Source: Escherichia phage vB_EcoM_Goslar
Reading direction: 5' to 3' (one strand)
Length of the DNA stretch: 64,000 nucleotides
Sequence record: NC_048170.1
This document shows, in pieces, positions 18,462 to 45,661 of the stretch. The notes under the pieces were generated by a model. The model was not told the DNA's origin. It saw only the letters and a program-made list of their open reading frames with translations, and ran no database searches. The first letter of the stretch is position 1, and each line of letters opens with the position of its first letter. A program made the translations under genes and the position numbers.

Positions 18462-20510
18462 TTAAATACCCTTGGTTCCTTTCACGTGATGTGCGATTTC
18501 TTCAACCATTGCACGCAGAGCACGAAGCTGTTGGTCGTGTTCGTACCAACCACCTAACAGAACCCCGCTATACACCATGGTGTCAAGACTTAACAGTCCT
18601 TTATCTGATACGTTGATCATTTCAGGGAACTGTTCTTGAACACGCTGTGCGATAACACCGATCTTCTCGACATCAGGATCGTAGTTGTGACGGAAACGGG
18701 CAAGCCCACTGCGCGCCATTTCACGTAAACGTTCACTGAGAGATTCCGGATGATCTTTCAGATAACGAATGTCGTGTTTACTACGTTCATCCGAGCGAAT
18801 GTAAGCGTTAGGAACATCGATATTGCTGTTGAAGTACAGCGCACTACCACCGCCTGCAGAGTTCCCCCAATAGAAGCGTGTGATCTCACCGCCGCCATTT
18901 TCCGTGATGATAACATGTTTACCTAAACGCGTACCACCATTACCATCAACGAAGACCAGTTTGTTTCCGCTGTAAGAACCCCAGAACAAGCGTGTATCGA
19001 TGATGTGTGTTGCAGCGAGACGGGCGTTACGTGGTGTAGAATACACGGTGTTAACATCTTGCTGCGCATGTGCATCGGAAGCGATACCATAGTTCTGTAC
19101 GTTACCCAATCCCACCTGCGCTTTCGTAACAGCGTGAGGGTTATCCCGACGGTTAGCGTGAGCGTTAACCAGATCACCCGCTAATTTCTGAATTGCCCAG
19201 TTGGTAGACTGTGGTGTCATGTAACGGTTCGTTGCAGAACCACCTTGCGCTTCAGCTTGGTTAGCGGTTGGGTAGTTCTCAACACTTCCTAACCCTACTT
19301 GTGCTTTAGACACTTGGTGTGGGTTATTCTTGTCAGCGATATGCGCATTAAGCGGAACTAACGCAAAGGTCTCAATGGACGCTTTGGTTGTGTTCGGTGC
19401 CATTAATCGGTTAGCTGCAACACCGGCACGCGCTTCTTCTTCAGAAGCCATTGGGTAGTCTTGCACATTCCCCAACCCAACCTGCGCTTTGGTTACCCTG
19501 TGTGGGTTGTTGTAATCGGCTTTATGCGCATTAAGTGGGATCAATGCGAACTGTTCAATCGATGCAGCGGTGCGTAGCGGCGTCATGAAACGGTTGTTCG
19601 CTGTTCCGGCTTTCGCCTCTTCATCCGAAGCGGTCGGGAAGTTATCAACGTTCCCAAGGTTAACCTGTGCTTTGGTGACGCTATGTGGGTTATCCCGACG
19701 GTTAGCATGCGCGTCGACCAGATCACCCGCCAGTTTAGCAATCGCCCAGCCAACCGTCTGTGCGGTCATGTAGCGGTCAGGTGCAGTACCGGCTTCTGCC
19801 TCCGCCTTGTTTGCGGTAGGATAGTTCTGTACGTTACCTAGTCCGACTTGGGCTTTTGTTACTTCGTGTGGGTTATCGGTACGGTTAGCATGCGCGTAAT
19901 GCAGATCGGTCAGATCTTTATCCGCCGCTTGCATGTCTTTGCGTAGCTGATCGATTGCCGCCCAGAGACGGTTATCGGACGCAGCATCACCGATAAGTAT
20001 TGCGGCTTTTAACGAATAGATCGCTAAGCAAAGATGTTCGGTACCGTAAATAGCACTAACGTGGTGGATGTGTGGCTCAGGCGGATAAAGTTCCGGTTTG
20101 TTCTTGATGTCATCCCAGTTGATCGGACGATCGTCAAGTTTGAGTTCTTCGATAGCCTGATATAACGCGTCAATAAGACTTACGTAAACACCACCGATGA
20201 TACGATAGTCGTTAACTAACGTCCCCTCGATATCATCGTTGATAATGGCGATGGCTGCACAGATTTCTTTACCCGCGTAAAGCGTTGCATCCTGGTACAA
20301 GAAAATGGGTTTATAATCCACGCCTCGTACCAGTGTCTTACCGGTAAGCTTTTCAGTGATGACCAGACTTTCGGTGAAGAACGGTCCGCCATCAAGGGCG
20401 TAACATTTATTCTCGGTTCGTGGAACGGTATGCTCTTCACCAACGATGTGGTTGCTGGCGAGTGTACCGGTCCAGTCCTCGGGGTACTTCAGGGTAATTG
20501 GTGTCGACAT
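18462..20510 (-). CDS. tail fibre protein with repeat array and C-terminal peptidase-S74 chaperone domain
   Basis: At least six repeats of NPHxVTKAQVGLGNVxNY (about 40-aa period); C-terminal ~110 aa contain S-D-E-R-S-K fitting the S-D-x-x-x-K self-cleavage site of S74 domains. Confidence 0.7.
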   Translation of the reverse strand: MSTPITLKYPEDWTGTLASNHIVGEEHTVPRTENKCYALDGGPFFTESLVITEKLTGKTLVRGVDYKPIFLYQDATLYAGKEICAAIAIINDDIEGTLVNDYRIIGGVYVSLIDALYQAIEELKLDDRPINWDDIKNKPELYPPEPHIHHVSAIYGTEHLCLAIYSLKAAILIGDAASDNRLWAAIDQLRKDMQAADKDLTDLHYAHANRTDNPHEVTKAQVGLGNVQNYPTANKAEAEAGTAPDRYMTAQTVGWAIAKLAGDLVDAHANRRDNPHSVTKAQVNLGNVDNFPTASDEEAKAGTANNRFMTPLRTAASIEQFALIPLNAHKADYNNPHRVTKAQVGLGNVQDYPMASEEEARAGVAANRLMAPNTTKASIETFALVPLNAHIADKNNPHQVSKAQVGLGSVENYPTANQAEAQGGSATNRYMTPQSTNWAIQKLAGDLVNAHANRRDNPHAVTKAQVGLGNVQNYGIASDAHAQQDVNTVYSTPRNARLAATHIIDTRLFWGSYSGNKLVFVDGNGGTRLGKHVIITENGGGEITRFYWGNSAGGGSALYFNSNIDVPNAYIRSDERSKHDIRYLKDHPESLSERLREMARSGLARFRHNYDPDVEKIGVIAQRVQEQFPEMINVSDKGLLSLDTMVYSGVLLGGWYEHDQQLRALRAMVEEIAHHVKGTKGI
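18465..18800 (-). other. predicted S74 self-cleaving chaperone domain (C-terminus of the fibre)
   Basis: YIRS|DERSKHDIRYL with Ser and Lys spaced as in the endosialidase/T5 pb1-type chaperone domain. Confidence 0.55.
19040..19880 (-). repeat. in-frame coding repeat array (about 120-nt units) in the fibre gene
   Basis: Six to seven consecutive copies of the NPHxVTKAQVGLGNV unit with flanking Ala/Gly-rich linkers. Confidence 0.6.
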
Positions 20511-24196: not shown

Positions 24197-26350
24197 TTAT
24201 AACGTTTCGAAGTCGGTTGCTTTGATAACCGCGTTGAAGTTGGCAAGGAATTCCTTAAGCAGTGCTTGGAAGACATCACGAAACGCTGTGTTCGTCTGCA
24301 AGCTGGTTAAATAATCGTTCTTAAGGTAATCGCTCAGCTTACCGATCTTCTGCATCTTCTCGCCGTCTTGGTTCTCTCCAGGTTCTTGGCTGTTGATGTT
24401 AACCCATTTGATCCCTTCGAGATCGCCATCGGCAAGGAAGTTGGCGGGTGTCTCATCGTCGTTCAGGATTTTAATCGTATCACTGGATTCAATGCCACCG
24501 TAAGCTTCCAGAAGCTGGTTGACTGTTAGCTTATTGGTGTTGATTGAACCATTGACACCATCGATACCGATGCCTGCACCTGTGATGGATGTCGCCGAAA
24601 GATCGATCGGTCCGGTTAACTTACCACCGTTGATCGGTAACGCACCAACTTGCTCAGCGGTGTGTGTATGGTCAGCTAACGCCGCAAACGCCACGATAGA
24701 CTTATATGTCGAATACGGCGTCATATACGCTGATTGGTTGGTGTTGTCAGCCGCTTCAGTATCGGTAGCGATATTAAAGTTCTGCACGTTGCTGAGACCG
24801 ACCTGCACCTTCGTTACTTCATGCGGGTTGTTCTTATTGACAACGTGTGCTGCAAAACCATCACCAGCTAAAGCAGTGATTGCCGCTTTTGTCGCAGCCG
24901 GTGTCATATAGCGGTTGGTTGCTTCACCCGTTTGCGCCTCTTCGTCGGAAGCAACAGGATAGTTCTCAACGCTTCCCAAACCGACCTGAGATTTTGTTAC
25001 TTGGTGTGGGTTTTCGGTATTCGCAATATGACTACTGAACCCTTGACCCGCCAGTTGCTCGATTGCGTAACGAACAAGTATTGGTGTCATGTACTTGTTG
25101 TTAACTTGACCATCGATAGCTTCTTGGGTGGTGGCAACCCCGAAGTTTTGCACGCTCCCCAACCCAACTTGCGCTTTCGTAACAGCGTGGGGGTTATTGG
25201 TGTTACCGATGTGATCGGTAACCGTTGGGGTGATTAATCCTGCGATAGCGGCTGCCGTGGTCGCAGGGGTCATGTATTTATCGTTAGCAACACCCGCAGC
25301 AGCTTCTACGTTAGATGCTACACCGTAGTTCAATACATTTCCTAACCCAACCTGCGCCTTGGTTACCCCGTGGGGGTTGTTCTTGTCTCCGGTATGGGTT
25401 GTCAACGTAGCGTTAACGTTATCGATACGCGTGCTTAAGCTATCAGTGATTGCTTTGATTGCGGCTCGTACACCCGCTGGTGTTGTGTACAGATCTGTGG
25501 CCGTACCGGTAATGGTTGTATTACTATCGGCTACACCGTAGTTCTCAACGTTTCCGAGTCCCACCTGGGCTTTCGTTACCTTGTGTGGGTTGTTGTAGTT
25601 GCTGATGTGCGCAGCAGCACTATCACCACTCAGGTTAGCGATCATCTTACGCGTCATCGCCAACGTCATGTACAGATTTTCACCGATGGTTTCCAGATCG
25701 CTCTCGGTCGCCGTTGTGAAGTTCTGAACATTTCCTAACCCAACCTGCGCCTTGGTTACCCCGTGGGGGTTATCGCGACGATTCTCGTGCTGCAGCAATG
25801 CAGTCATTGCTTTATTGAACCCTTCTTCAAGCGGTTCTTTCAATGATTCGATTGCAGCCACCACATCGTCCCACGTCATTGTGTCGGTTTCGACATTATG
25901 TTGGTGGTTGATTGGCGGGAATACGGAAGGAACGTCAGCAACCTTTTCCCAGAACGTAACGCGAGGGTCGTAAAGGTTGTTGGCTAAAACGTTAAGAATT
26001 TGTTGTTGATCAAGTGTAAACTCACCCCCCAGTGAATAGTAGTTCAGTTGCAACTGTCCACTGAATGCGGTGTCCAACAGCATGATGGAACCGTATAATT
26101 CCAGGCCGGTCAGCGCAGCCATGGCACGGAAGGGGTGAGTGCATAAAAAGTCAACGCCTTCTTCCAGATACGCGTTTGTTTCAGGGTTGTAGATCTTTAA
26201 CCCATTGCGAAAATATGGCGCGTATTTAGGAACGAGAAAGTTAAATCCGGTCCCCGTGGAAGGACGGACAGTGACGAGTTCTTCTGGAACCCATGCGCCA
26301 TCCAAATTCCCCTGCGGGTTATACGGAAGGCGTTTAATTTCATCTGTCAT
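24197..26350 (-). CDS. tail fibre protein with repeat array
   Basis: At least eight repeats of NPHxVTKAQVGLGNVxN between residues ~190 and 540; C-terminal domain differs from the S74-containing fibre. Confidence 0.65.
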   Translation of the reverse strand: MTDEIKRLPYNPQGNLDGAWVPEELVTVRPSTGTGFNFLVPKYAPYFRNGLKIYNPETNAYLEEGVDFLCTHPFRAMAALTGLELYGSIMLLDTAFSGQLQLNYYSLGGEFTLDQQQILNVLANNLYDPRVTFWEKVADVPSVFPPINHQHNVETDTMTWDDVVAAIESLKEPLEEGFNKAMTALLQHENRRDNPHGVTKAQVGLGNVQNFTTATESDLETIGENLYMTLAMTRKMIANLSGDSAAAHISNYNNPHKVTKAQVGLGNVENYGVADSNTTITGTATDLYTTPAGVRAAIKAITDSLSTRIDNVNATLTTHTGDKNNPHGVTKAQVGLGNVLNYGVASNVEAAAGVANDKYMTPATTAAAIAGLITPTVTDHIGNTNNPHAVTKAQVGLGSVQNFGVATTQEAIDGQVNNKYMTPILVRYAIEQLAGQGFSSHIANTENPHQVTKSQVGLGSVENYPVASDEEAQTGEATNRYMTPAATKAAITALAGDGFAAHVVNKNNPHEVTKVQVGLSNVQNFNIATDTEAADNTNQSAYMTPYSTYKSIVAFAALADHTHTAEQVGALPINGGKLTGPIDLSATSITGAGIGIDGVNGSINTNKLTVNQLLEAYGGIESSDTIKILNDDETPANFLADGDLEGIKWVNINSQEPGENQDGEKMQKIGKLSDYLKNDYLTSLQTNTAFRDVFQALLKEFLANFNAVIKATDFETL
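24730..25780 (-). repeat. in-frame coding repeat array in the second fibre gene
   Basis: Same repeat family as 19040..19880. Confidence 0.6.
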
Positions 26351-37234: not shown

Positions 37235-39793
37235 TTACTGCTCTTCACGTTCCAGCAGATACTCGGAAGCGGTAATACCGTTTACCGTACGTACTGCTTT
37301 CAGACGAGTATCATCACTCAGAATCACGGTAACAGATTGCAGACCTTTTACTTTGGTTTCGAAGGTCTTGAACACCTGATCCAGCATACGAGCAATGCTT
37401 GGGTTGGTTGCAGCCGATGCGTGGGTGTAACCGCTTTGGTTCAGCTTCAGAATCTTGGCGTTGGTCGGTACGCGAACAACAACATGCGGACGCATCGCGA
37501 ATACGCTGTGATTGAACCAGTAAGCGTCGTTACTATCTTCGTCGGTAACGATGTCTGGATTAACACGCATATCCTCGACAGCCGCATCCGCCAAACGACG
37601 TTCGATTTCATCGGCGTCCAGAGAGCCATCTTTCTCCAGTTCTGCACGATACTCACTCATGGCAACCAGATGACGTTCACGATTCGCTGCGGATTTTTCG
37701 TGAGCGGCTTTCAGGTAGTCATGCATGTTGTACAGTTCTGCCATGGAAAGACGAATGTTCCACTGACCTTCGCCATCGCGATTGCAGTAGAGACACTTCA
37801 GCATGTTGACCCAGGTATAGTAGCAATTGGCGAATTCATCTTCAATGAACTTCTGGTCCATTTTAAGATCGTGAATCAGCCAACCGGACAGTTCTCCGAT
37901 ATCATCAACGAAGCTAGAGATGGTGGTTTCAGAGAAGTTCTTCGGTACGATACGTTTGATCAGCTTATTGACGTCTTTGGTCATGCTATCGTTCAGGAAA
38001 TGCCAGATACGCAGAGGAATGACATCTCGATACTGTTGCATGATCTGACGATAAGCTTTGATATCGTCGCTACGACCTTTATCAATAGACAACGCATCCA
38101 GGAATTCATGGATTGCATCCAGCTCTTTGTCGGTATAGGTTCCCAGATAGGAATTGACGGTGGCCAGGAATGCTAATGCGTCGTTTTGGTTGACGTCGGT
38201 GTTGGTCTGCTGAATGATCGCCACTGCAGCTTTAGTTTCAGCATCCTCAACGCTTGACGCTGCGATCGCGTCGGTGACGGTAAACAGTTTCATTTCGCGC
38301 TGCTCACCGACAACGATTGGCTCACGCTGAACCGGCTTGTTAAGACTAACGCGAACAACTTCTGCTTGCGCGATACGATCCAGTTTTGCCATTTCCTGCT
38401 CTGCCATACGACGAGCGGTTGGATCTGATTCAAGTTCGATGTATTCCACTTCTTCCTCCGTGAGGGATGTAATGTCAACAATGGTTTCATGAAGAATTCC
38501 GTTTTCGTCGATACGTGCTCGACGAGCGAAGTGCCTGAAGTCATACAACGTCGGCCAACGACTATTAGGTGCAAAGTCTTTGGCTTTCAGACGCATCTGC
38601 ATAAATTCTTCATGTTGAACAACACGACCGTAACGCTTAGCATCTTCGGTCGCATCAATTGGATTAACGGTCTTTGTTGCCGTAGCGGAACGAGCCGTAC
38701 GAACCGGTTCCGGTTTCACCTGCGCCGGTTCAGGTTGAACGGGTTTCTGCTGTCCAGCCTTAACATGCCATTCTGGCTCTTCGTACTGTTCAGCAAATTG
38801 CTCAGCCGCTGCAAAGATATCGTTGATACCACCAATATCTCCTTCAGGATTTGTCGAGTAAATCCGTGGTTGCGGTGCCTCGTAACGCGGCGCTGTAGCA
38901 GCAGGTGCCTCATCAACGATAGGATCATCATCACCGACATCATACAAACGGTTGAACGCACAATCCTTCGAATCAATGTACGATGGTGTTTGTGGTTGGA
39001 CAACCGTAGGCCGAGGTTGTGTGCCGTATCCTGGTGTTGTTGGAGCCATACCACGCATAACTGCTGGGTTAGGTTGGTATTGTGGTTGTGGGTAGGTTCC
39101 ACCATACATGGCGTACGCAGGCTGTTGTGGTTGACCATACCCGTTGCTAACCATCGCACTTGCTTGCGGCCCACGATAAGTCATCCCCATCTGCATCACC
39201 TGCTGCTTCAAACCACGTGACTTCTGCGCGATTTGCGCTAGGCTTCCGCTTTTATTCAGCTGCGTGTACTTATTCGCGGCTTCCGGGTTAATGCGTGATA
39301 ATTCAATCGCGCGATAATATTCCGGGTACTGATTCGGTTCAAAGAGCCACGTTACAAGATGATACAGCGCAACTGTACTCACGGCAGCAGAGACGATCTG
39401 GTCGTCGGACGCGTTCTGTGGCATCGGGTTGATGTAAGAGAACACGTTCCAACAACAGTCTTCAACAAGCGATTCCATCATCATATCGTTATTGGTATAA
39501 CGTGCGACGAACTCGGTTTGTATTTTGTCTTGCTGAGCGAAGTCTTTCAGGACATTAAAGATGGCTTGACGGATTTTGACGATCGTCGCTTCTTGGGTGA
39601 TGAAGTTATAGTTCTGCTGATATGAGGGTTGTTGGTATTGTGGTGGTTGATAGGCGTTATTCGGGTATGCGCCGTACGGCGATTGCTGATACTGTTGCTG
39701 ACGAACCTGTTCAGCCGCATAATTAATCGTGCTCGTATAAGGGTTTTCGCTATAGCCCATTTGTTGATACATGTTGTTACTGCCATTATACAT
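37235..39793 (-). CDS. large hypothetical protein with Q/Y/P/G-rich low-complexity segments
   Basis: 852-aa ORF, SD AAAGGA; N-terminal YQQSPYGAYPNNAYQPPQYQQPSYQQNY and internal GYGQPQQPAYAMYGGTYPQPQYQPNP. Confidence 0.5.
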   Translation of the reverse strand: MYNGSNNMYQQMGYSENPYTSTINYAAEQVRQQQYQQSPYGAYPNNAYQPPQYQQPSYQQNYNFITQEATIVKIRQAIFNVLKDFAQQDKIQTEFVARYTNNDMMMESLVEDCCWNVFSYINPMPQNASDDQIVSAAVSTVALYHLVTWLFEPNQYPEYYRAIELSRINPEAANKYTQLNKSGSLAQIAQKSRGLKQQVMQMGMTYRGPQASAMVSNGYGQPQQPAYAMYGGTYPQPQYQPNPAVMRGMAPTTPGYGTQPRPTVVQPQTPSYIDSKDCAFNRLYDVGDDDPIVDEAPAATAPRYEAPQPRIYSTNPEGDIGGINDIFAAAEQFAEQYEEPEWHVKAGQQKPVQPEPAQVKPEPVRTARSATATKTVNPIDATEDAKRYGRVVQHEEFMQMRLKAKDFAPNSRWPTLYDFRHFARRARIDENGILHETIVDITSLTEEEVEYIELESDPTARRMAEQEMAKLDRIAQAEVVRVSLNKPVQREPIVVGEQREMKLFTVTDAIAASSVEDAETKAAVAIIQQTNTDVNQNDALAFLATVNSYLGTYTDKELDAIHEFLDALSIDKGRSDDIKAYRQIMQQYRDVIPLRIWHFLNDSMTKDVNKLIKRIVPKNFSETTISSFVDDIGELSGWLIHDLKMDQKFIEDEFANCYYTWVNMLKCLYCNRDGEGQWNIRLSMAELYNMHDYLKAAHEKSAANRERHLVAMSEYRAELEKDGSLDADEIERRLADAAVEDMRVNPDIVTDEDSNDAYWFNHSVFAMRPHVVVRVPTNAKILKLNQSGYTHASAATNPSIARMLDQVFKTFETKVKGLQSVTVILSDDTRLKAVRTVNGITASEYLLEREEQ

Positions 39794-39827: not shown

Positions 39828-41624
39828 TCAATCGATTATGTCGCGATCGTTAATTTCTACAATTTCTTCATCGAATCGACCGACGTCTTTCTTCAAGCCT
39901 GCATTGGTTGCTGCAACGTCATTTGCAATTTGTGGGGTAATGATTAACCGACCGCGCTCATCGATAGGTGCGTACATACTGAACTTCTGACGTCCGGTTG
40001 GTTCGGAGTGTGGAAGATTCAGATAGCTTGCACAGAACGGGATGGAACCACTAACCAAACGACTCTCGTCAGCCAATGCAGCACCGCCTGCGTTTTGGCT
40101 CTGGAGAACAACATGCGTGCTCACTTTGAACAGCATGCAATCACCAGGTGACTGAATCGATGTTGCCACTTTCTCACGTTTATCACGATTGCTCTGGATA
40201 TTGAGAATCGCTTCCGTTGCAACTTGATTTCGCAACGCCTTCTGTACATCGCGATTGGTCATCTCTTTACGGTTGTTCTGTCGTTTACCACGTTCTGTGG
40301 TTTTAAGATGGAACCCCAGTTTAAAGATGCTCTTACGCACATCCTCCATGACATATTCCAACACCATCAATTCCTTACCGAACATCGTCGTGGTATCAAC
40401 ACGACTCATTTCGATAGTGACATTGTCAATCAGATACGCCATAAATTCGTAGAAGTCGTCGCAAGGAATATTTTCCTGTTTGAACTTCTTCTGTTGAATC
40501 TCGTCAACGTAAAGATCGAGACTGTCGATGTGGTGGTTTACATCACGCAACAAACGCGCATCCGCATTGTTGTTATTAAAGATAATCAAACCGAGTAATG
40601 TACGCCAATGGTCTGGCGCATTCGCGAACTCCTCAACCGGATAGTCTTCCGGAAAACGATCGTAATAACGGTCGATGAGATACAAGAATGCACCGACAAG
40701 GCCAAGAACAATACGTTCCGTGCCTCCACGTCTTACAGCAATTTGAATATCAGGATGTTTGTAACGTACAGCGCTAGCGCTACGGCTTTTACCGCTTTTG
40801 CTGATACTAAAGCCTTTAGGAATAACCCCCATGGTGCGATAGATTACCCATTGGTCACGCGGAAAATCACGTTCAGCAAGGTTCCGTCCGGTTACGGCTT
40901 CGACACCTGCAAAACGTCGGAAACACTCACCCACCCCGTACTTCGCAAAGAGATAGTGACCCAGTGTGGTTACGCTGGTGTGGTTGATGTTGTCACCGTT
41001 CACTTTACTTTGTTTAGTAAGATGATAGATTTGCGACCAGGGTAATGACAGGTAATGACGATAATCGATACCGGTCGGTGTATCATTGCTCAGGAACTGA
41101 TACGGTGTACGTTTAACCGTGATTTTGTCACGCGGAAGCATGATGAACGCCATGTCTTTCGTGTAACTGATTACGGGGTCAGCGAGTACCGCACTGAGAA
41201 TGAAGTTCGCACCACGTAGACGCATTTTACCACCCTGACCTACCGCGGGCAATAGGAGAGGATGTCGGATAATGCAGTAGTCCTTTCCTGGTTCACGACG
41301 GTCACCTGATTCCATCGCGCCGTACCAGCGGAATTCCAGCATCACCATAAACACATCGGAAGGCGCAAGGTCGAAGGTCAGCTTACCGCTATCCTTCCCT
41401 TTGGTTTTCTTTCCTCCGCTTAAGTAGTGGAACTGTTCGCGGGCCATACAACGACGCAGGCCATGATACACCAGATCCTTAGGTAAACTATCTTTGCTGT
41501 TCCGCCAAAGACGATCAACATAGGACTCAACATCTTGCATCTTATCGACGACGATGTTGCGTGCTATCTTCTCGTTCATCTTCGGTGCAAGCTCAGCGAC
41601 AGCTTTGCAGAATCTAGGATCCAT
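39828..41624 (-). CDS. hypothetical protein
   Basis: About 598-aa ORF; track start is GTG, adjacent ATG at 41622-41624 has SD AAAGGAG. Confidence 0.5.
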   Translation of the reverse strand: MDPRFCKAVAELAPKMNEKIARNIVVDKMQDVESYVDRLWRNSKDSLPKDLVYHGLRRCMAREQFHYLSGGKKTKGKDSGKLTFDLAPSDVFMVMLEFRWYGAMESGDRREPGKDYCIIRHPLLLPAVGQGGKMRLRGANFILSAVLADPVISYTKDMAFIMLPRDKITVKRTPYQFLSNDTPTGIDYRHYLSLPWSQIYHLTKQSKVNGDNINHTSVTTLGHYLFAKYGVGECFRRFAGVEAVTGRNLAERDFPRDQWVIYRTMGVIPKGFSISKSGKSRSASAVRYKHPDIQIAVRRGGTERIVLGLVGAFLYLIDRYYDRFPEDYPVEEFANAPDHWRTLLGLIIFNNNNADARLLRDVNHHIDSLDLYVDEIQQKKFKQENIPCDDFYEFMAYLIDNVTIEMSRVDTTTMFGKELMVLEYVMEDVRKSIFKLGFHLKTTERGKRQNNRKEMTNRDVQKALRNQVATEAILNIQSNRDKREKVATSIQSPGDCMLFKVSTHVVLQSQNAGGAALADESRLVSGSIPFCASYLNLPHSEPTGRQKFSMYAPIDERGRLIITPQIANDVAATNAGLKKDVGRFDEEIVEINDRDIID

Positions 41625-41663
41625 CACACACTCCTTTCAGAAAGTTGCTTAAGCAGATTAAAG

Positions 41664-43100
41664 TTACTTTTTCGATGACGCCTTCTCAAGAATCTTGAAA
41701 AAGGTCATACCTATACCGACAACAGCCGCGGTTATACTCGCAGCGGCTTTCCAAACATCGACGTTACGTTGACGTCGCGCTTCTTCCGCTTCACGTTGTC
41801 TTTTTGCCTCTTCATCACGTCGACGTATCTCAGCCGCAAACTCGTCATGCTTACGTTTGGCTTCTTCGTCTCGACGACGAAGTTCAGCGACGAATTCTTC
41901 ATGTTTGCGTTTAGCCTCGTCGTCACGACGTTTTAAATCAGCTTGATAATCTTCGTGTATTTGTCTACGTAGATCATCTTGACGTTTCATTTCGGCTTGG
42001 TGTTGTTCCATCCTACGTTTTTGTTCGTCTTTAAGCTGATCGAGTTCGGCTTTATGTTGTTCATCACGCAGCTTTGCGTCGGCGCGATGCGCCTCATGCA
42101 TCTGTGCGATAACTGCCTTGTGTTCATCCGCCATACGTCGCATTTCAGCCATCACCCCTTTAAGGGTTTCTTCTGATGCCTTACGTTCGTAGCTACGTTG
42201 GTCGAAATCATTTTTGTAGGCTTCTTTTTGGATGGGGTCGCGCCAATGCAATGCCGATTCACGCGTCGGAAAAACATTGTACTTCCACATCTCTTTTTCC
42301 AAATCTTCGACCGGTACGAAGACGGAGTCATTATTCCCGAAGGTAACCAACATACCTGGCGCGCCTGCTCCATTCGTTGGTTTTATTTCGAACGCTTTCC
42401 CCAACACGTTAACCCATAAGCTATACGGATTATGAAAGTCGGGCGGCGTCCAATGGATAGTGAGTTGCGTTCCGAGAATCCGGAAACCCTCTGTTTTTCC
42501 CGTCAAGCTCCGCGCGCACGTTGCGATGTAGGGGTGATCAATCCCTTTCGTAACGTGGTCTGCGCTTTTGTATTCTCCTTTAACTTTTACGATTGCCACG
42601 TTGATTTGCGCGACATAAGCGGGTTGATTAAAGTTCAACGTGTTGAGGTCAATTTGACATATTTCATCCAGCGTATCGTACCAGTCTTGCTGGTCTAATA
42701 GACGCGGCATTTTCTCTGTGTTAACAATACGACGGATATGCGGTTTCCTTATCGCGTAACCTGTGCCGTTTTTAACACGGAGTATATCCCGACGTCTACC
42801 CGCGTAGACGAAGTTTCTGAATGCACCATTCGCATTAGATACGTCATGGCTGTCAACTATTACAGGACTACGAAATTTTGAACGTCGTACGATCCTGAAT
42901 GTATTGCCGTCCTCAACCCTACCAGGAATGTACTGGAACATATTGTCGGAGGTGATAACCAACACGGTATGGCCAGATTCATTAATACATGCCCATCCTA
43001 ATTCCAGGTCATATAACGGTTCAGCATAACCGTCAATGCGATATGCGTGCGTACCATCCCACGGTTCGAACGCAGTATCACATATTGGCATGGAGGGCAT
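41664..43100 (-). CDS. hypothetical tail-anchored membrane protein with tandem coiled-coil repeats
   Basis: ATG at 43098-43100 (SD GGAGG); three tandem 18-aa repeats RRDEEAKRKH(E/D)EF(V/A)AE(L/I), then C-terminal TM helix ASITAAVVGIGMTFF. Confidence 0.5.
   Translation of the reverse strand: MPSMPICDTAFEPWDGTHAYRIDGYAEPLYDLELGWACINESGHTVLVITSDNMFQYIPGRVEDGNTFRIVRRSKFRSPVIVDSHDVSNANGAFRNFVYAGRRRDILRVKNGTGYAIRKPHIRRIVNTEKMPRLLDQQDWYDTLDEICQIDLNTLNFNQPAYVAQINVAIVKVKGEYKSADHVTKGIDHPYIATCARSLTGKTEGFRILGTQLTIHWTPPDFHNPYSLWVNVLGKAFEIKPTNGAGAPGMLVTFGNNDSVFVPVEDLEKEMWKYNVFPTRESALHWRDPIQKEAYKNDFDQRSYERKASEETLKGVMAEMRRMADEHKAVIAQMHEAHRADAKLRDEQHKAELDQLKDEQKRRMEQHQAEMKRQDDLRRQIHEDYQADLKRRDDEAKRKHEEFVAELRRRDEEAKRKHDEFAAEIRRRDEEAKRQREAEEARRQRNVDVWKAAASITAAVVGIGMTFFKILEKASSKK
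41765..41945 (-). repeat. tandem 54-nt in-frame repeats (3 units)
   Basis: Repeated ttcttcgtctcgacgacgaagttcagcgacgaattc-type units encoding the RRDEEAKRKHxEF repeats. Confidence 0.5.
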
Positions 43101-43250
43101 CGTCAACCTCCATCAGATTGAAAACTATCACGCATAATACATTTCCCTTTTTCTTGTTCTTATCAAGCCGACAGCCGACGGTTTCAGCATCGTTCCTAGC
43201 GCGAGAACGACCTTACGTGTTGTCTATGCCTTATTCATCGCAGGCGTCTG

Positions 43251-43274: not shown

Positions 43275-43309
43275 ATTTTTTCTATTCGCAACGATAAACG
43301 GCATAGAAA

Positions 43310-43339
43310 CCTCCCCCAACCCTTACGGGCTGAGGGAGG
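43310..43339 (-). terminator. conserved intergenic stem-loop terminator (variant)
   Basis: cctccc-ccaa-ccc-ttac-ggg-ctga-gggagg; minus-sense followed by UUUCUAUGCCG; downstream of the candidate capsid gene. Confidence 0.5.
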
Positions 43340-43438
43340 CTGACTTATGTATCACGGTGCCGGATGAATGTCCGGTGCAATGAAACCATCTGCAACGTTG
43401 TCATCAAGAATATCATCCAACGAAGCAGCTACGGTAGT

Positions 43439-45661
43439 TCAGTTAGTCTGAACCGGCAGCTTGATGTTTTCAGTGTAGACCTTACGCAGGTTCACAACGT
43501 TAATCAGACCCAGCAGCGGGCAGTTGTTAACGAAGCGGCAGCGCGGCTGAACCATGGTTTCTTTAGAAACCTGACCGTTACGGGTAACCTGAGCAACAGA
43601 TACCAGTTCCGGTACATACAGGAACATACCGAAGGTCAGCGGATCCGGAGAACCCTGGATACCACGAGACAGGGTCACGAAGATCTTATCGCGCAGCATG
43701 ACGTTCGGGTTATCTACAACCACGAAGTTGAAGCTTACACCAACGGTACGGAAATCGCCATCGGTCTGCAGGAACTGCGGGATGTAGTTGTCAGTTGCTA
43801 CTACGCAACGCGGTTTCTCATCAGCGTTGGAAGACAGCAGCTGCAGAGCTGGCTGATAACCAGACTCGGAGTACATGCGGTATGCCATCTCACGAATCAC
43901 GTTCATGATCGCAGCAGACACTTCAGCACGACGTTCTGCAGTGGTGGTACCCTGAACAGATTTCTCCAGGTCCAGATTGATTTCTTCGAACCACGGACGG
44001 ATCAGGTAACGACCGAAACCTTCGATCTGGATGTCACCGAACTGACGGAAGCGAGAGGTCGCAACCGCTTTCAGTGCGTCTTTGTAGCTGAACAGTTTCT
44101 CAACCATCAGGTTGTCGAAACGTGCGTTAGCAGCTTGGATCAGAACGTCCAGGTCAGCAGCGTTTTCTTCCCAATCCAGCGGACGAGGAATGGAGAACGG
44201 AGCCAGCAGGCCGATTGCGTAACGTTCTTGCTTCATGTTGAAGTCAAGGTGCTTACCGCGCTCACGACGGTTGCTGTTGTTACGACGGATACGCAGTTCG
44301 TAACCAACCAGTTTGAAGCTCAGGTCTTCAGCCAGTTGTTTGAACTCTTCGCTCTTACGCGGTTGTTCGATGTTGTCCTGATCAACCAGGCGATACAGTT
44401 CAGCGTTAGCGCCGTTAACACGCAGACCCGCTTTCTCTACGTTGGAAGAACCGTAAACTTCGATCGCCAGCTGAGCAGCGGATTTCGCATCGATGATGTC
44501 CTGCAGCGCTTCGGCTTTCGCACCTTTAACGTCTTTGGTGTTCTCATCAACGAAGATGGAGTGGGTGTCGAACGCCAGGGTCATTTTGCGGAAGTCGCCT
44601 TCCAGGGATTTCTGGAAACCGTTGGTGATCAGACCAGATACGTCGAACGGTACGTAAGAGGTTTTGCTGTGCTTGGTAGATTTGATTTCCACCAGGATTT
44701 TGGTCAGCGTGATCTGAGCATCCAGCGCGTCGGTGTTGTCGCTGTAACCGTTAGCCAGAATGCTGTCGTCTTCAGCGATACCGATCATGTCGATCAGTTT
44801 ATCAACAGCCAGGTAAGACGTTTTATAAGTTACGCCTTTAATTTCGATGTCGCGCGGAGCAACGATAGCTTTGTCAACGAAGTACTGCGCGTTAGCATCG
44901 TCAGCACGATAGATCGGATGCAGATCGGTCACGTCGTTGGACAGAACGTCGTTATACATGAACGCATCCAGCAGCGGACGACGTACCCAATCAGCCGGAG
45001 TACCGTCAGCGTTACGACGCAGGTGGTTGAACACCAGCGGACGACGGAAAGATACGTCGTAACCGATCTGGTTCGGAGCCAGAACGATGGTGTTGTACAG
45101 TTCGTTACCCATGCGGCTCAGACGAGAAGCCTTCACGTTGAACACGACGGAGTACGGCATCATGTCACGCAGTTCTTTCTGGTCGTAGGACAGCTGAACC
45201 AGTTCTTCAGATTCGCAACCGCAGGAATCAGCAGCCATCATGACGAAGTTAGAGCTGTCAACTTCACGACCTGACGGAGTGGTGCTGATGTTCATGGAAC
45301 GTGCTTGTTTAGCATATTCTACCGGGTTGCCATGAGCCAGCATGATCAGTGCTGCTGCACGAGCCTGCTGTGCGTTCATGGTGAACAGCTGTTCTTCAAT
45401 ACGCTGCTTCTCTTCCGGAGTGGTGGTTTCGAAGCCCAGCAAGGTCAGAACCGGTTCTTCGGCTTTACGGATGTCGCTGCTGAAGCTCTTAACATCCATT
45501 TCGTTAACCAGTTTGTCCATGGATTTGAAATCAACCTTAGAAGCAGATTCCATAGACAGGAAGGTGTTCTCCAGACCTTTGTCTGCTGGTTTGCTACCAT
45601 TAGCGGTCAGGAACTGGCGAGTGGCCGCGACCTGTTGGCTAAGAAGGGTTTTATCATTCAT
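43439..45661 (-). CDS. putative major capsid protein (jumbo-phage-like size); tail sheath not excluded
   Basis: 740 aa; strongest optimal-codon bias in the window; SD AAGGA 9 nt upstream; own promoter-like and terminator elements; N-terminal ~160 aa contain S/A/G-x-E motifs (SME, GFE) of the kind cleaved by prohead proteases. Confidence 0.35.
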   Translation of the reverse strand: MNDKTLLSQQVAATRQFLTANGSKPADKGLENTFLSMESASKVDFKSMDKLVNEMDVKSFSSDIRKAEEPVLTLLGFETTTPEEKQRIEEQLFTMNAQQARAAALIMLAHGNPVEYAKQARSMNISTTPSGREVDSSNFVMMAADSCGCESEELVQLSYDQKELRDMMPYSVVFNVKASRLSRMGNELYNTIVLAPNQIGYDVSFRRPLVFNHLRRNADGTPADWVRRPLLDAFMYNDVLSNDVTDLHPIYRADDANAQYFVDKAIVAPRDIEIKGVTYKTSYLAVDKLIDMIGIAEDDSILANGYSDNTDALDAQITLTKILVEIKSTKHSKTSYVPFDVSGLITNGFQKSLEGDFRKMTLAFDTHSIFVDENTKDVKGAKAEALQDIIDAKSAAQLAIEVYGSSNVEKAGLRVNGANAELYRLVDQDNIEQPRKSEEFKQLAEDLSFKLVGYELRIRRNNSNRRERGKHLDFNMKQERYAIGLLAPFSIPRPLDWEENAADLDVLIQAANARFDNLMVEKLFSYKDALKAVATSRFRQFGDIQIEGFGRYLIRPWFEEINLDLEKSVQGTTTAERRAEVSAAIMNVIREMAYRMYSESGYQPALQLLSSNADEKPRCVVATDNYIPQFLQTDGDFRTVGVSFNFVVVDNPNVMLRDKIFVTLSRGIQGSPDPLTFGMFLYVPELVSVAQVTRNGQVSKETMVQPRCRFVNNCPLLGLINVVNLRKVYTENIKLPVQTN

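Follow-up and report, generated by a model that had tools for sequence, protein, structure and literature searches.

A repeat-built charged stalk and a putative carboxyl-terminal membrane anchor in a chimallivirus orthologue of phiKZ gp122

Nucleus-forming jumbo phages of the Chimalliviridae share about 70 core genes. One of them is the gene for phiKZ gp122 (core gene cg35), labelled 'hypothetical' (PMC10299810), and its family is still 'hypothetical' or 'uncharacterized'. The phiKZ gp122 mRNA peaks early and then falls, and silencing of chmA prolongs it, as it does the mRNA of the nvRNAP gene gp74 and unlike that of the capsid gene (PMC12571901). While gp122 mRNA falls, capsid mRNA rises about six-fold. 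Both gp122 antisense oligomers scored '+' (mild), against '+++' for the capsid gene. With gp122 silenced, phage transcription was strongly affected at 30 min; gp122, gp123, and gp124 mRNA were not lowered by the gp122 oligomer at 15 min. Transposon insertions number zero across phiKZ orf119-124 (PMC12676376, Table S2). The preprint itself cautions about polar effects, and both the insertion result and the transcription phenotype could reflect polarity on the adjacent nvRNAP gene, orf123.

Two membrane-linked steps of these phages have no described phage membrane factor: genome transfer and capsid assembly. The injected genome is held in a lipid vesicle and is moved to the protein nucleus 'by an as-yet unknown mechanism' (PMC10541120), and the inner membrane is where chimallivirus capsids assemble (PMC12908238). 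Our literature search found no paper that pairs 'tail-anchored' with 'phage nucleus'.

Two sets of cellular proteins resemble the tail-anchored layout that we propose below. The E. coli proteins ElaB, YqjD, and YgaM (DUF883) have a cytoplasmic helical amino-terminal part and a carboxyl-terminal membrane helix with a basic end, and are inserted post-translationally. They provide the bacterial precedent, although they are ribosome-associated stress proteins of about 100 residues, whereas the protein described here has 478 residues and a large β-rich domain; Pfam scans found no similarity between it and these DUF883 proteins. The eukaryotic golgins giantin and golgin-84 are tail-anchored coiled-coil tethers. 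Their likeness to the proposal is one of outline, in architecture alone: a carboxyl-terminal membrane helix, a long helical rod, and binding at the far end. The rod described here is about ten times shorter and very highly charged, and its period is 3.6 residues where theirs is a heptad; no kinship in sequence is expected, the protein comes from a virus and works inside bacteria, and its capture of a partner is hypothetical.

The window, the whole 64,000-nucleotide stretch of DNA that was analysed, is that of a divergent phiKZ-like (chimallivirus) jumbo phage from Salmonella/E. coli samples. The gene lies on the minus strand between two neighbors of the same orientation: the major capsid gene (43439-45661(-); PhiKZ_MCP, PF25620, E 5e-218) and the nvRNAP β-subunit gene (39828-41627(-); phrog_2943 polymerase subunit, gp123 homologue). 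The open reading frame, 41664..43106 (-), opens at a TTG. The true coding sequence instead runs from ATG 43100 to the stop at 41664, as an earlier note on this DNA had placed it, because all homologues share the start MPSMP and a GGAGG stands 6 nt 5' of this ATG. On the capsid side lies a terminator-like hairpin (-31.3 kcal/mol, z -5.2; 0 of 200 shuffles were equally stable). It is absent from the output of a simple terminator scan; phage LucasX has a terminator annotated at the matching position. A sigma-70 promoter scan upstream of the gene gave no match, as expected because the phage uses its own polymerases. The gp122 gene looks to be co-transcribed with the nvRNAP subunit rather than with the capsid gene.

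By synteny and profile comparison, the encoded protein is the orthologue of phiKZ gp122. The gene order helicase / gp119-like / capsid / X / gp123 / gp124, with the gene at X, is found in nine reference chimalliviruses (phiKZ, LucasX, Noxifer, Xoo-sp14, pEa_SNUABM_54, DT01, RsoM3USA, Eowyn, and RP12) and in close relatives of the present phage. A profile of the amino-terminal domain matches a profile of eight classical gp122 homologues with 96.1% probability (E 2.9e-9, 219 columns; hhalign). PHROG 7727 matches the protein at E 4.4e-6, and PHROG 7286 provides a bridge to phiKZ gp122. Pairwise BLASTP and single-sequence hhalign against gp122 alone give weak matches. In a Foldseek search of BFVD, the best 30 matches (E <= 1e-3) were all uncharacterised jumbo-phage proteins of 277-549 aa, including one from 201phi2-1, a likeness of fold that is supportive only, since the query model is of low confidence.

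The two orthologues have in common the slot between the capsid gene and nvRNAP gp123, a homologous amino-terminal domain, and a three-part plan (phiKZ gp122: PHROGs 15024 / 7286 / 7727), at an identity of only about 15%. They differ in several respects: the domain here carries lineage-specific insertions (aa ~95-135); the linker has 162 residues and is made of 18-residue repeats, compared with 59 residues in phiKZ; the carboxyl-terminal helix is clearly hydrophobic here and marginal in phiKZ; and the small extra gene gp121, upstream in phiKZ and Noxifer, is absent from this window. All 12 family members that we examined, with mutual identities of only 10-30%, consist of an amino-terminal domain, a linker, and a terminal hydrophobic helix. 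The architecture described in the earlier note (a large amino-terminal domain, a charged stalk, and a single carboxyl-terminal hydrophobic helix) is therefore not peculiar to this phage. Linker length, 57-162 residues with its maximum in this window, varies as expected of a putative spacer.

No match to the protein was found by tblastn in 50,697 phage records at 1e-5, nor to the gene by Megablast in complete E. coli genomes or among PLSDB plasmids, and IMG/VR yielded two loci only, near-identical. Pfam has no family for the protein or for the 12 amino-terminal domains; one relative gave weak, sub-threshold matches to DUF7552 and DUF5881. Exhaustive HMMER searching with the amino-terminal domain added just two distant relatives, and a word-indexed search with the 12-member profile only three more, so the alignment available for structure prediction is shallow. 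Neither the family profile nor phiKZ gp122 found a homologue among PDB sequences; therefore, none is modelled in any deposited virion structure.

Table 1. Position of the gene, its flanking signals, and the parts of its product within the window
Feature	Coordinates	Strand	Basis
Terminator-like hairpin between capsid gene and target (15-bp stem, GUAA loop, U-rich tail)	43308..43341	-	RNA fold
Shine-Dalgarno GGAGG, 6 nt upstream of ATG 43100	43107..43111	-	Direct sequence reading; favors ATG 43100 over TTG 43106
Complete coding sequence, 478 aa plus stop, phiKZ gp122/cg35 orthologue	41664..43100	-	ORF list, shared ATG, synteny, hhalign, core-gene table (PMC10299810)
β-rich globular amino-terminal domain without signal peptide, aa 1-288	42237..43100	-	AlphaFold2 secondary structure
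Charged α-helical stalk, aa 289-443, ~22 nm if one continuous helix	41772..42236	-	AlphaFold2 helix 289-439
Three older degenerate 18-residue units, aa 336-389	41934..42095	-	18-residue register table
Repeat copy 1, KRRDDEAKRKHEEFVAEL, aa 390-407	41880..41933	-	Sequence
Repeat copy 2, RRRDEEAKRKHDEFAAEI, aa 408-425	41826..41879	-	Sequence; 72% aa and 69% nt identity to copy 1
Repeat copy 3 (half copy), RRRDEEAKRQREAEEARR, aa 426-443	41772..41825	-	Matches copies 1 and 2 over first 9-10 residues only
Juxtamembrane segment QRNVDVWK, aa 444-451, family-wide (D/E)-x-(W/I/L)-K motif	41748..41771	-	Family alignment
Carboxyl-terminal hydrophobic helix, putative tail anchor, aa 452-471, AAASITAAVVGIGMTFFKIL, Gly/Ala-rich	41688..41747	-	Hydrophobicity scans
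Short basic tail EKASSKK, aa 472-478	41667..41687	-	Sequence

The amino-terminal domain has a dN/dS of 0.02-0.07 and carries the conserved family motifs N40, H189-P190, and G234. AlphaFold2 models its core strands at pLDDT 70-87; the lineage-specific loops 77-144 and 177-211 fall below 50, and the mean is 62 for the full protein and 54 for the domain alone. The model has no significant match in the PDB. Since it is poor and resembles nothing known, no partner can be named. Hydrophobicity scans detect no hydrophobic segment at the amino terminus.

The earlier note's long charged helical region is borne out and can be defined more closely. Residues ~305-448 are 55% D/E/K/R with a net charge of -1, and AlphaFold2 predicts one uninterrupted helix over residues 289-439 (pLDDT 85-90 centrally). 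The stalk contains 83 opposite-charge i+3/i+4 pairs, compared with 42.4 +/- 5.0 in 2000 shuffles. Composition, near-zero net charge, charge pairs at twice the chance level, and a single unbroken predicted helix are all features of ER/K single α-helix spacers, such as the lever extensions of myosin VI/X. Unlike these, the stalk has many His and Gln residues as well as a sparse hydrophobic stripe, with one F/V/A/L in every 18 residues (period 3.6), so it could pair as a non-supercoiled dimer. About 16% of its residues are hydrophobic, with a period that peaks at 3.60-3.65 residues. The stalk does not fit a canonical heptad coiled coil: the spectral peak is not at 3.5, and the insertions and deletions that distinguish related stalks (18, 18, and 11 residues) are not multiples of 7. 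Rigidity is not a family-wide property, because the linker of pEa_SNUABM_54 is Pro/Ser-rich and non-helical.

Much of the stalk is built from a repeat with a period of 18 aa, or 54 nt. The closest pair of adjacent 18-mers agrees at 15/18 positions, a count that never rose above 10 in 5000 composition-preserving shuffles; self-identity at lag 18 is 0.357, against 0.107 +/- 0.026 (z 9.5), and the signal recurs at lags 36 and 54. The repeat that the earlier note described as three head-to-tail copies is thus real and far beyond chance, but the third copy is only half a unit, retaining RRRDEEAKR. In the other direction, the degenerate units at aa 336-389 continue the register of the three copies upstream. 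The repeat is weak as DNA. The copies are 56-69% identical, their longest exact shared word is 6-8 nt, copies 1 and 2 write 8 of their 13 identical residues with different codons, and Tandem Repeats Finder reports no array at the locus. The three terminal copies are under strong purifying selection (dN/dS 0.01-0.10 at dS 0.5-1.2), whereas the degenerate stretch has dN/dS of 0.13-0.34 and mosaic ancestry. Conservation of the terminal copies suggests that they may have a specific binding or pairing role and are not purely spacing.

Related phages encode proteins of 460, 478, 489, and 507 aa. DNA alignment of these four variants resolves their differences into two 54-nt indels and one 33-nt indel, equivalent to five turns (18/5 = 3.6) and three turns (11/3 = 3.67) of helix. 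Both 54-nt indels lie in or at the 3' edge of the degenerate units; upstream of these, still within the stalk, is the 33-nt indel. Differences in length are also combined with recombinational exchange of the stalk module. The three terminal copies are present in the same number, ungapped, in all 11 full-length relatives. Within one lineage length looks fixed, in that all 14 of the full-length members listed for a 208-member cluster have 478 aa.

These comparisons divide a claim made at the outset, that the repeats expand and contract readily and that stalk length may vary between isolates as a result. Stalk length does differ between phages, but the number of the repeats then named is invariant among relatives. 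Slippage fails as the cause: diverged as they are, with no exact word longer than 8 nt, the terminal copies offer no substrate for it, and they are held by strong purifying selection. It is accordingly very improbable that the 54-nt repeats form a fast-changing contingency tract, in which isolates would keep gaining and losing units and so differ in stalk length. In favor of such a tract are the four lengths found among close relatives and the two indels of exactly 54 nt; against it are a constant repeat number, short shared words, the want of a TRF array, and equal lengths throughout the listed 478-aa cluster members, and the length classes follow deep lineages (dS 0.5-1.2) and recombination blocks.

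In the AlphaFold2 model the stalk helix breaks at residues 440-445, ahead of the terminal hydrophobic helix. The top Kyte-Doolittle 19-mer (1.76) is at aa 453. The best 17-mer, aa 452-468, has a summed Hessa-scale value of +1.4, compared with +7.5 for the next best segment in the protein, and is followed by just 10 residues, KILEKASSKK; most of the family has a short tail with a basic end. In 11 of 12 members the terminal helix is by far the most hydrophobic segment, and it always falls within the last ~35 residues. Its 17-mer mean on the Kyte-Doolittle scale is 1.6-2.3 across the family, and its summed Hessa-scale values range from -0.4 to +4.2, compared with 7-13 elsewhere in the proteins. 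The exception is phiKZ gp122, where the helix is marginally hydrophobic (7.0, compared with 7.3 elsewhere). The phiKZ anchor may be weak or lost, and the phiKZ literature may for this reason not transfer to the present phage. Among relatives at dS 0.3-0.5, the last 35 residues are identical. Retention of this topology in 12 of 12 members, at 10-30% identity, is strong evidence that the putative anchor is functional.

Together, these features suggest that the gp122 orthologue is a tail-anchored membrane tether that faces the cytoplasm and includes a rigid spacer, a reading to which we give somewhat better than even odds; membrane insertion, topology, rigidity, the tether role, and timing in this phage are the parts that we infer. 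The protein would be made in the cytoplasm and afterwards inserted into the host inner membrane, or into the derived vesicle that holds the injected genome. A cytoplasmic amino-terminal domain and post-translational insertion are the probable arrangement, given the lack of a signal peptide and the need, in the opposite orientation, to move a 150-residue, 55%-charged helix through the membrane. The β-rich domain would then stand about 20-27 nm off the membrane on a stiff, salt-bridged helix, either an ER/K-type single α-helix or a weakly packed, non-heptad coiled coil, and early in infection would be offered to a partner from phage or host. The spacer of this lineage probably grew by serial duplication of the five-turn unit, and lineages differ by whole 18-residue units, by one 11-residue (three-turn) piece, and by swaps of the stalk module. 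Such whole-unit changes would shift the reach by about 1.6-2.7 nm and keep the helical phase.

The terminal helix might instead be a protein-protein element, serving in stalk bundling or as a plug for the chimallin shell or another phage assembly, in which case the protein would be soluble or shell-associated. The Gly/Ala/Thr-rich composition of the helix also fits this role, as do its small-xxx-small patterns, although such motifs are equally frequent in oligomerising membrane helices. Most of the predicted insertion energies are positive (+0.8 to +4.2, and +7.0 for phiKZ gp122) and so count against a membrane anchor; the basic residues beyond the helix would hinder passage of the tail across the membrane; and silencing of gp122 in phiKZ disturbs phage transcription, a nuclear process. 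This alternative nevertheless appears unlikely to us. It leaves unexplained the family-wide hydrophobicity and terminal position of the segment, as well as its flanking aromatic and basic belt (WK ... K/KK), which is typical of membrane-helix boundaries. A membrane-bound role could also lie in procapsid assembly, with the protein as initiator or tether, much as T4 gp40 is a membrane factor that helps portal initiation in T4. Every chimallivirus examined has the gene immediately downstream of its major capsid gene, and the literature that we searched contains no phage-encoded membrane factor for the capsid step. Capsids at partial stages of assembly have been observed on the inner membrane (PMC12908238; PMC10299810). 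Against this, the phiKZ gene is early and its mRNA declines as capsid mRNA climbs; the capsid gene and the gp122 orthologue have the strong hairpin between them, both here and in LucasX; transcription appears to be shared with the nvRNAP subunit; and the phiKZ knock-down is mild by comparison with that of the capsid gene. We regard the procapsid role as quite improbable.

A lysis function, in which the membrane helix itself would be the active part of a holin, antiholin, or spanin-like protein, is scarcely credible. The Gly/Ala-rich helix would suit it, and the gross topology (N-in, single-pass, with most of the mass cytoplasmic) recalls that of the class III phiKZ holin, gp142 (PMC12894885). 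That holin has ~130 aa and no detected homology to the present protein, and it belongs to a separate locus, the late lysis cassette gp141-144 (PMC12894885), whereas the gp122 family is early-expressed in phiKZ, has 360-507 aa with a conserved globular domain, far above holin size, and is flanked by capsid and RNA polymerase genes with no endolysin or lipoprotein partner adjacent. Anchoring of PhuZ filaments was considered separately and ruled out: gp122 is core, and PhuZ is non-essential and missing from many chimallin-encoding phages (PMC13282480).

If the anchor does not bind membranes, what is left is an orphan phage protein with an unremarkable helical linker expanded by repeats. If a gene that is core, early in phiKZ, and free of insertions there does carry a conserved anchor on a rigid stalk of variable length, the tail-anchored tether becomes a concrete candidate for both membrane-linked steps. 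A more specific version, which we consider rather unlikely as it stands, is that cg35/gp122 is the missing phage membrane factor: an early tether, inserted from the cytoplasm into the EPI vesicle or the adjoining inner membrane, whose amino-terminal domain would hold the nascent chimallin nucleus, ribosomes and mRNA, or the import and transfer machinery. The stalk would fix their distance from the membrane, and the tether would thereby aid handover of the genome from vesicle to protein nucleus. Were this true, the lineage-specific stalk lengths would be rulers tuned to that gap. The natural series of 460, 478, 489, and 507 aa, together with the family range of 57-162 linker residues, amounts to a ready-made set of ruler mutants.

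The window is that of a phiKZ-like jumbo phage. The gene studied lies between a capsid gene upstream (PhiKZ_MCP, PF25620, E 5e-218) and a phrog_2943 polymerase subunit downstream, the homologue of nvRNAP gp123; further large ORFs encode virion proteins, an SbcC-like nuclease, and a DnaB-like helicase. No catalogued phage has a capsid protein more than ~34% identical to this one, so the lineage is deep and uncatalogued. The same gene order, helicase(-), gp119-like, capsid, X, gp123, and gp124, is found in phiKZ, LucasX, Noxifer, Xoo-sp14, pEa_SNUABM_54, DT01, RsoM3USA, Eowyn, and RP12, where X denotes the slot of our gene. In phiKZ, X is gp122, preceded by the small gp121. Direct BLASTP against phiKZ gp122 was uninformative. 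Comparison of an N-domain profile from the window clade with one built from eight classical X proteins gave 96.1% probability (E 2.9e-9, 219 columns), and the family alignment has several motifs in common: an N-x-x-x-H beta-hairpin; HP(Y/F); Y-x-N-x-x-G; DG-x-Y; and F-x-T-x-x-EA. The top 30 Foldseek hits among predicted viral structures (E down to 5e-10) are all uncharacterised proteins of jumbo phages, one of them from 201phi2-1, and a sequence search of PDB chains returned no gp122 homologue. The Chimalliviridae core-genome table (PMC10299810) lists phiKZ gp122 as core gene cg35, 'hypothetical', and a 2025 antisense screen (PMC12571901) calls it 'Uncharacterized'. Within this known but uncharacterised core family, the window's gene is divergent and has an expanded stalk.

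Coordinates of features in the window
Feature	Position	Strand	Remark
ORF with TTG start	41664..43106	minus	ORF list
CDS of gp122-like protein, 478 aa	41664-43100	minus	ATG start and GGAGG
18-residue motif of the earlier note	41772-41933		
Terminator-like hairpin (15-bp GC-rich stem, GUAA loop, U-rich tail)	43308-43341	minus	-31.3 kcal/mol, z -5.2
Positional counterpart of phiKZ gp124	37235-39793	minus	852 aa, no PHROG match
Two paralogous virion or tail-fibre-like ORFs, phrog_2163 / phrog_13857	18462-20510, 24197-26350	minus	profile matches
636-aa ORF	43364-45274	plus	antisense to capsid gene

Six bases after the TTG comes MPSMP, the start of every homologue, and a GGAGG precedes the ATG at 43100 by 6 nt; the coding sequence therefore has the bounds that the earlier note gave it. 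An AlphaFold2 model built from a 22-sequence alignment has three parts: a beta-rich N-domain (aa 1-288), without match to any known fold, in which the core strands reach pLDDT 70-87 and two lineage-specific loops fall below 50; an unbroken helix (289-439; pLDDT 85-90 mid-helix); and, after a kink at 440-445, a terminal helix (446-474). The long helix would be ~22 nm at 0.15 nm per residue. Its composition is 55% D/E/K/R with a net charge of -1; opposite-charge pairs at i+3/i+4 number 83, against 42 +/- 5 expected; and its sparse hydrophobic residues recur with period 3.60-3.65, versus 3.5 for heptad coiled coils. The terminal helix, 10 residues from the C-terminus, is the sole hydrophobic segment (KD 19-mer mean 1.76; summed Hessa-scale value +1.4, runner-up +7.5), and hydrophobicity scans found no signal-like N-terminal segment.

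The proposed topology (N-domain, charged stalk, C-terminal anchor) is strongly supported across the family. The last ~35 residues contain the 17-mer of highest hydrophobicity in 12 of 12 members compared; 2-16 residues, usually ending in K/R, follow it, and in most members a (D/E)-x-(W/I/L)-K motif precedes it. Summed scale values are -0.4 to +4.2, with next best segments at 7-13, except in phiKZ gp122, where the terminal segment is only marginally hydrophobic (7.0 versus 7.3). The linker from the conserved EA motif to the anchor spans 57 residues in Eowyn, 59 in phiKZ, 121 in Noxifer, and 162 in the window, the longest among the compared members; that of pEa_SNUABM_54 is Pro/Ser-rich and not helical. 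This architecture is a family trait, and the stalk is its variable part.

An 18-residue register covers the C-terminal third of the protein, with units from aa 336 (EAHRADAKLRDEQHKAEL), 354 (DQLKDEQKRRMEQHQAEM), 372 (KRQDDLRRQIHEDYQADL), 390 (KRRDDEAKRKHEEFVAEL), 408 (RRRDEEAKRKHDEFAAEI), and 426 (RRRDEEAKRQREAEEARR), after which QRNVDVWK-AAASITAAVVGIGMTFFKIL-EKASSKK runs to the C-terminus. The periodicity is far above chance (lag-18 identity 0.357 versus 0.107 +/- 0.026 in shuffles, z 9.5; best tandem 18-mer match 15/18, at most 10 in 5000 shuffles). The earlier observation holds: of the three head-to-tail copies, two are good and the third is a half copy; at least three older, degenerate units lie upstream. 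The earlier note also held that tandem DNA repeats of this length expand and contract readily, so that stalk length may vary between isolates; the DNA speaks against such a cause here. Taken as DNA, the repeat is old: copies are 56-69% identical, copies 1 and 2 use different codons for 8 of their 13 identical residues, the longest common exact word is 6-8 nt, and Tandem Repeats Finder reported no array there. That the repeats form a slippage tract is scarcely credible. The repeat itself is ordinary.

Stalk length does vary, by another route. Close relatives (84-99% identical), from assemblies with the labels Salmonella, E. coli, and Shigella, fall into four classes: 460, 478, 489, and 507 aa. 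(In the 208-member 478-aa cluster, 14/14 full-length members among the matches listed have 478 aa.) DNA alignment of one representative per class reveals exactly three indels, of 33, 54, and 54 nt, every one in the stalk. Ongoing slippage in the terminal copies was rejected as the source of the variation: the indels lie elsewhere, and these copies are gap-free in 11/11 full-length sequences. dN/dS is 0.02-0.07 in the N-domain, 0.01-0.10 in the terminal repeats (dS 0.5-1.2), about 0 in the anchor and tail, and 0.13-0.34 in the upstream stalk. Such strict conservation of the terminal repeats suggests that the membrane-proximal rod is more than a spacer, e.g., in pairing or partner binding. Between relatives L004 (460 aa) and L008 (489 aa), the N-domains hardly differ (dS 0.09) and the anchors not at all, yet the upstream stalks are 65% identical (dS 1.1). 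The N-domain encoded in the window pairs with that of relative L007 (dS 0.125), but the upstream stalk is similar to that of L004. On these comparisons the gene is a mosaic. The indel pattern, invariant repeats, and mosaicism together indicate that lineages came to differ in length by ancient indels of unit size and by exchange of modules. The sizes of the indels agree with a helix: in a 3.6-residue helix, 18 residues make 5.0 turns and 11 make 3.06; whole-turn indels would therefore keep the head-to-anchor angle and the 3.6-period stripe, each altering reach by 2.7 or 1.65 nm with helical phase unchanged.

Transcription of the phiKZ orthologue has been recorded. At five time points, gp122 reads were 3405, 4255, 2580, 2200, and 945 in the control, and 2895, 4753, 4960, 5776, and 5927 with chmA silenced (PMC12571901 source data). 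Early, vRNAP-driven genes, nvRNAP gp74 for one, follow this pattern; the capsid gene takes the opposite course (21025 to 121458 in the control, flat without ChmA; PMC12571901). Both antisense oligomers against gp122 are marked '+', and its knock-down is listed with those that strongly affect phage transcription at 30 min (PMC12571901). Phage TnSeq found no insertions in orf119-124 and 16 sites in orf125 (PMC12676376 Table S2); its authors caution on polar effects (PMC12676376), and orf123 adjoins orf122 directly downstream. In the window, the very stable hairpin between the capsid and gp122-like genes, ~100 nt past the capsid stop codon, is likely an intrinsic terminator; a simple consensus terminator scan missed it, and LucasX has a terminator annotated at the corresponding place. 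Since this hairpin parts the two genes, the arrangement fits a transcription unit, separate from the capsid gene, that holds the gp122-like gene and the polymerase subunit.

The best-supported mechanism is that of a cytoplasm-facing, tail-anchored membrane protein whose conserved, beta-rich head sits on a stiff and charged rod. The protein would be inserted by its C-terminal helix, present its head to the cytoplasm on the rod, and act early in infection, its reach differing by whole turns from one lineage to another. (We infer insertion into the membrane, topology, and rigidity, as well as early timing in the window phage.) A terminal helix serving as a protein-protein element rather than a lipid anchor is unlikely. 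The hand-over from EPI vesicle to nucleus, described as mechanistically unknown (PMC10541120), might employ the core protein as a membrane tether, a role we consider quite unlikely. A procapsid initiator is decidedly doubtful, and a lysis protein extremely improbable: the phiKZ lysis cassette, gp141-144, is at a separate locus (PMC12894885). In the searchable literature, no report was found of a chimallivirus core gene whose product has a conserved tail anchor. Such a tail-anchored core protein, early and insertion-free in phiKZ, offers a concrete handle on open questions.

Contigs of 235-248 kb from this lineage turn up in many isolate assemblies, whose labels are Salmonella enterica (several serovars), E. 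coli (O157 among them), and Shigella flexneri; one C. difficile record has a partial copy. Complete E. coli genomes and PLSDB plasmids lack the lineage. A carrier state, a broad host range, or carry-over in the laboratory or during sequencing could account for this.

An extra ~150-aa gene separates capsid and gp122 homologue in phiKZ (L003 8709-10200, gp121/gp122; gp121 overlaps gp122 by 44 nt) and Noxifer (L012 6855-7301, gp123), and is absent from the window, LucasX, Xoo-sp14, DT01, RsoM3USA, Eowyn, and RP12. In Salmonella phage SA002 (L011 6627-7445), the post-capsid gene, at the end of the linear record, encodes a 272-aa Gly-rich protein that is no homologue of gp122; a permuted record, with the true neighbour at its other end, is the probable cause. 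The gp124 counterpart (847-863 aa across close relatives) has a Q/Y/N/P-rich low-complexity start (aa ~1-65) and a second, Q/P/Y/G-rich stretch (aa ~210-300); in phiKZ, gp124 knock-down also strongly disturbs phage transcription (PMC12571901). The 636-aa ORF is very likely a spurious shadow of the PF25620 gene on the opposite strand. Each of the two phrog_2163 / phrog_13857 ORFs has 4-6 separate profile-matching stretches, which suggests fibre proteins with internal repeats.
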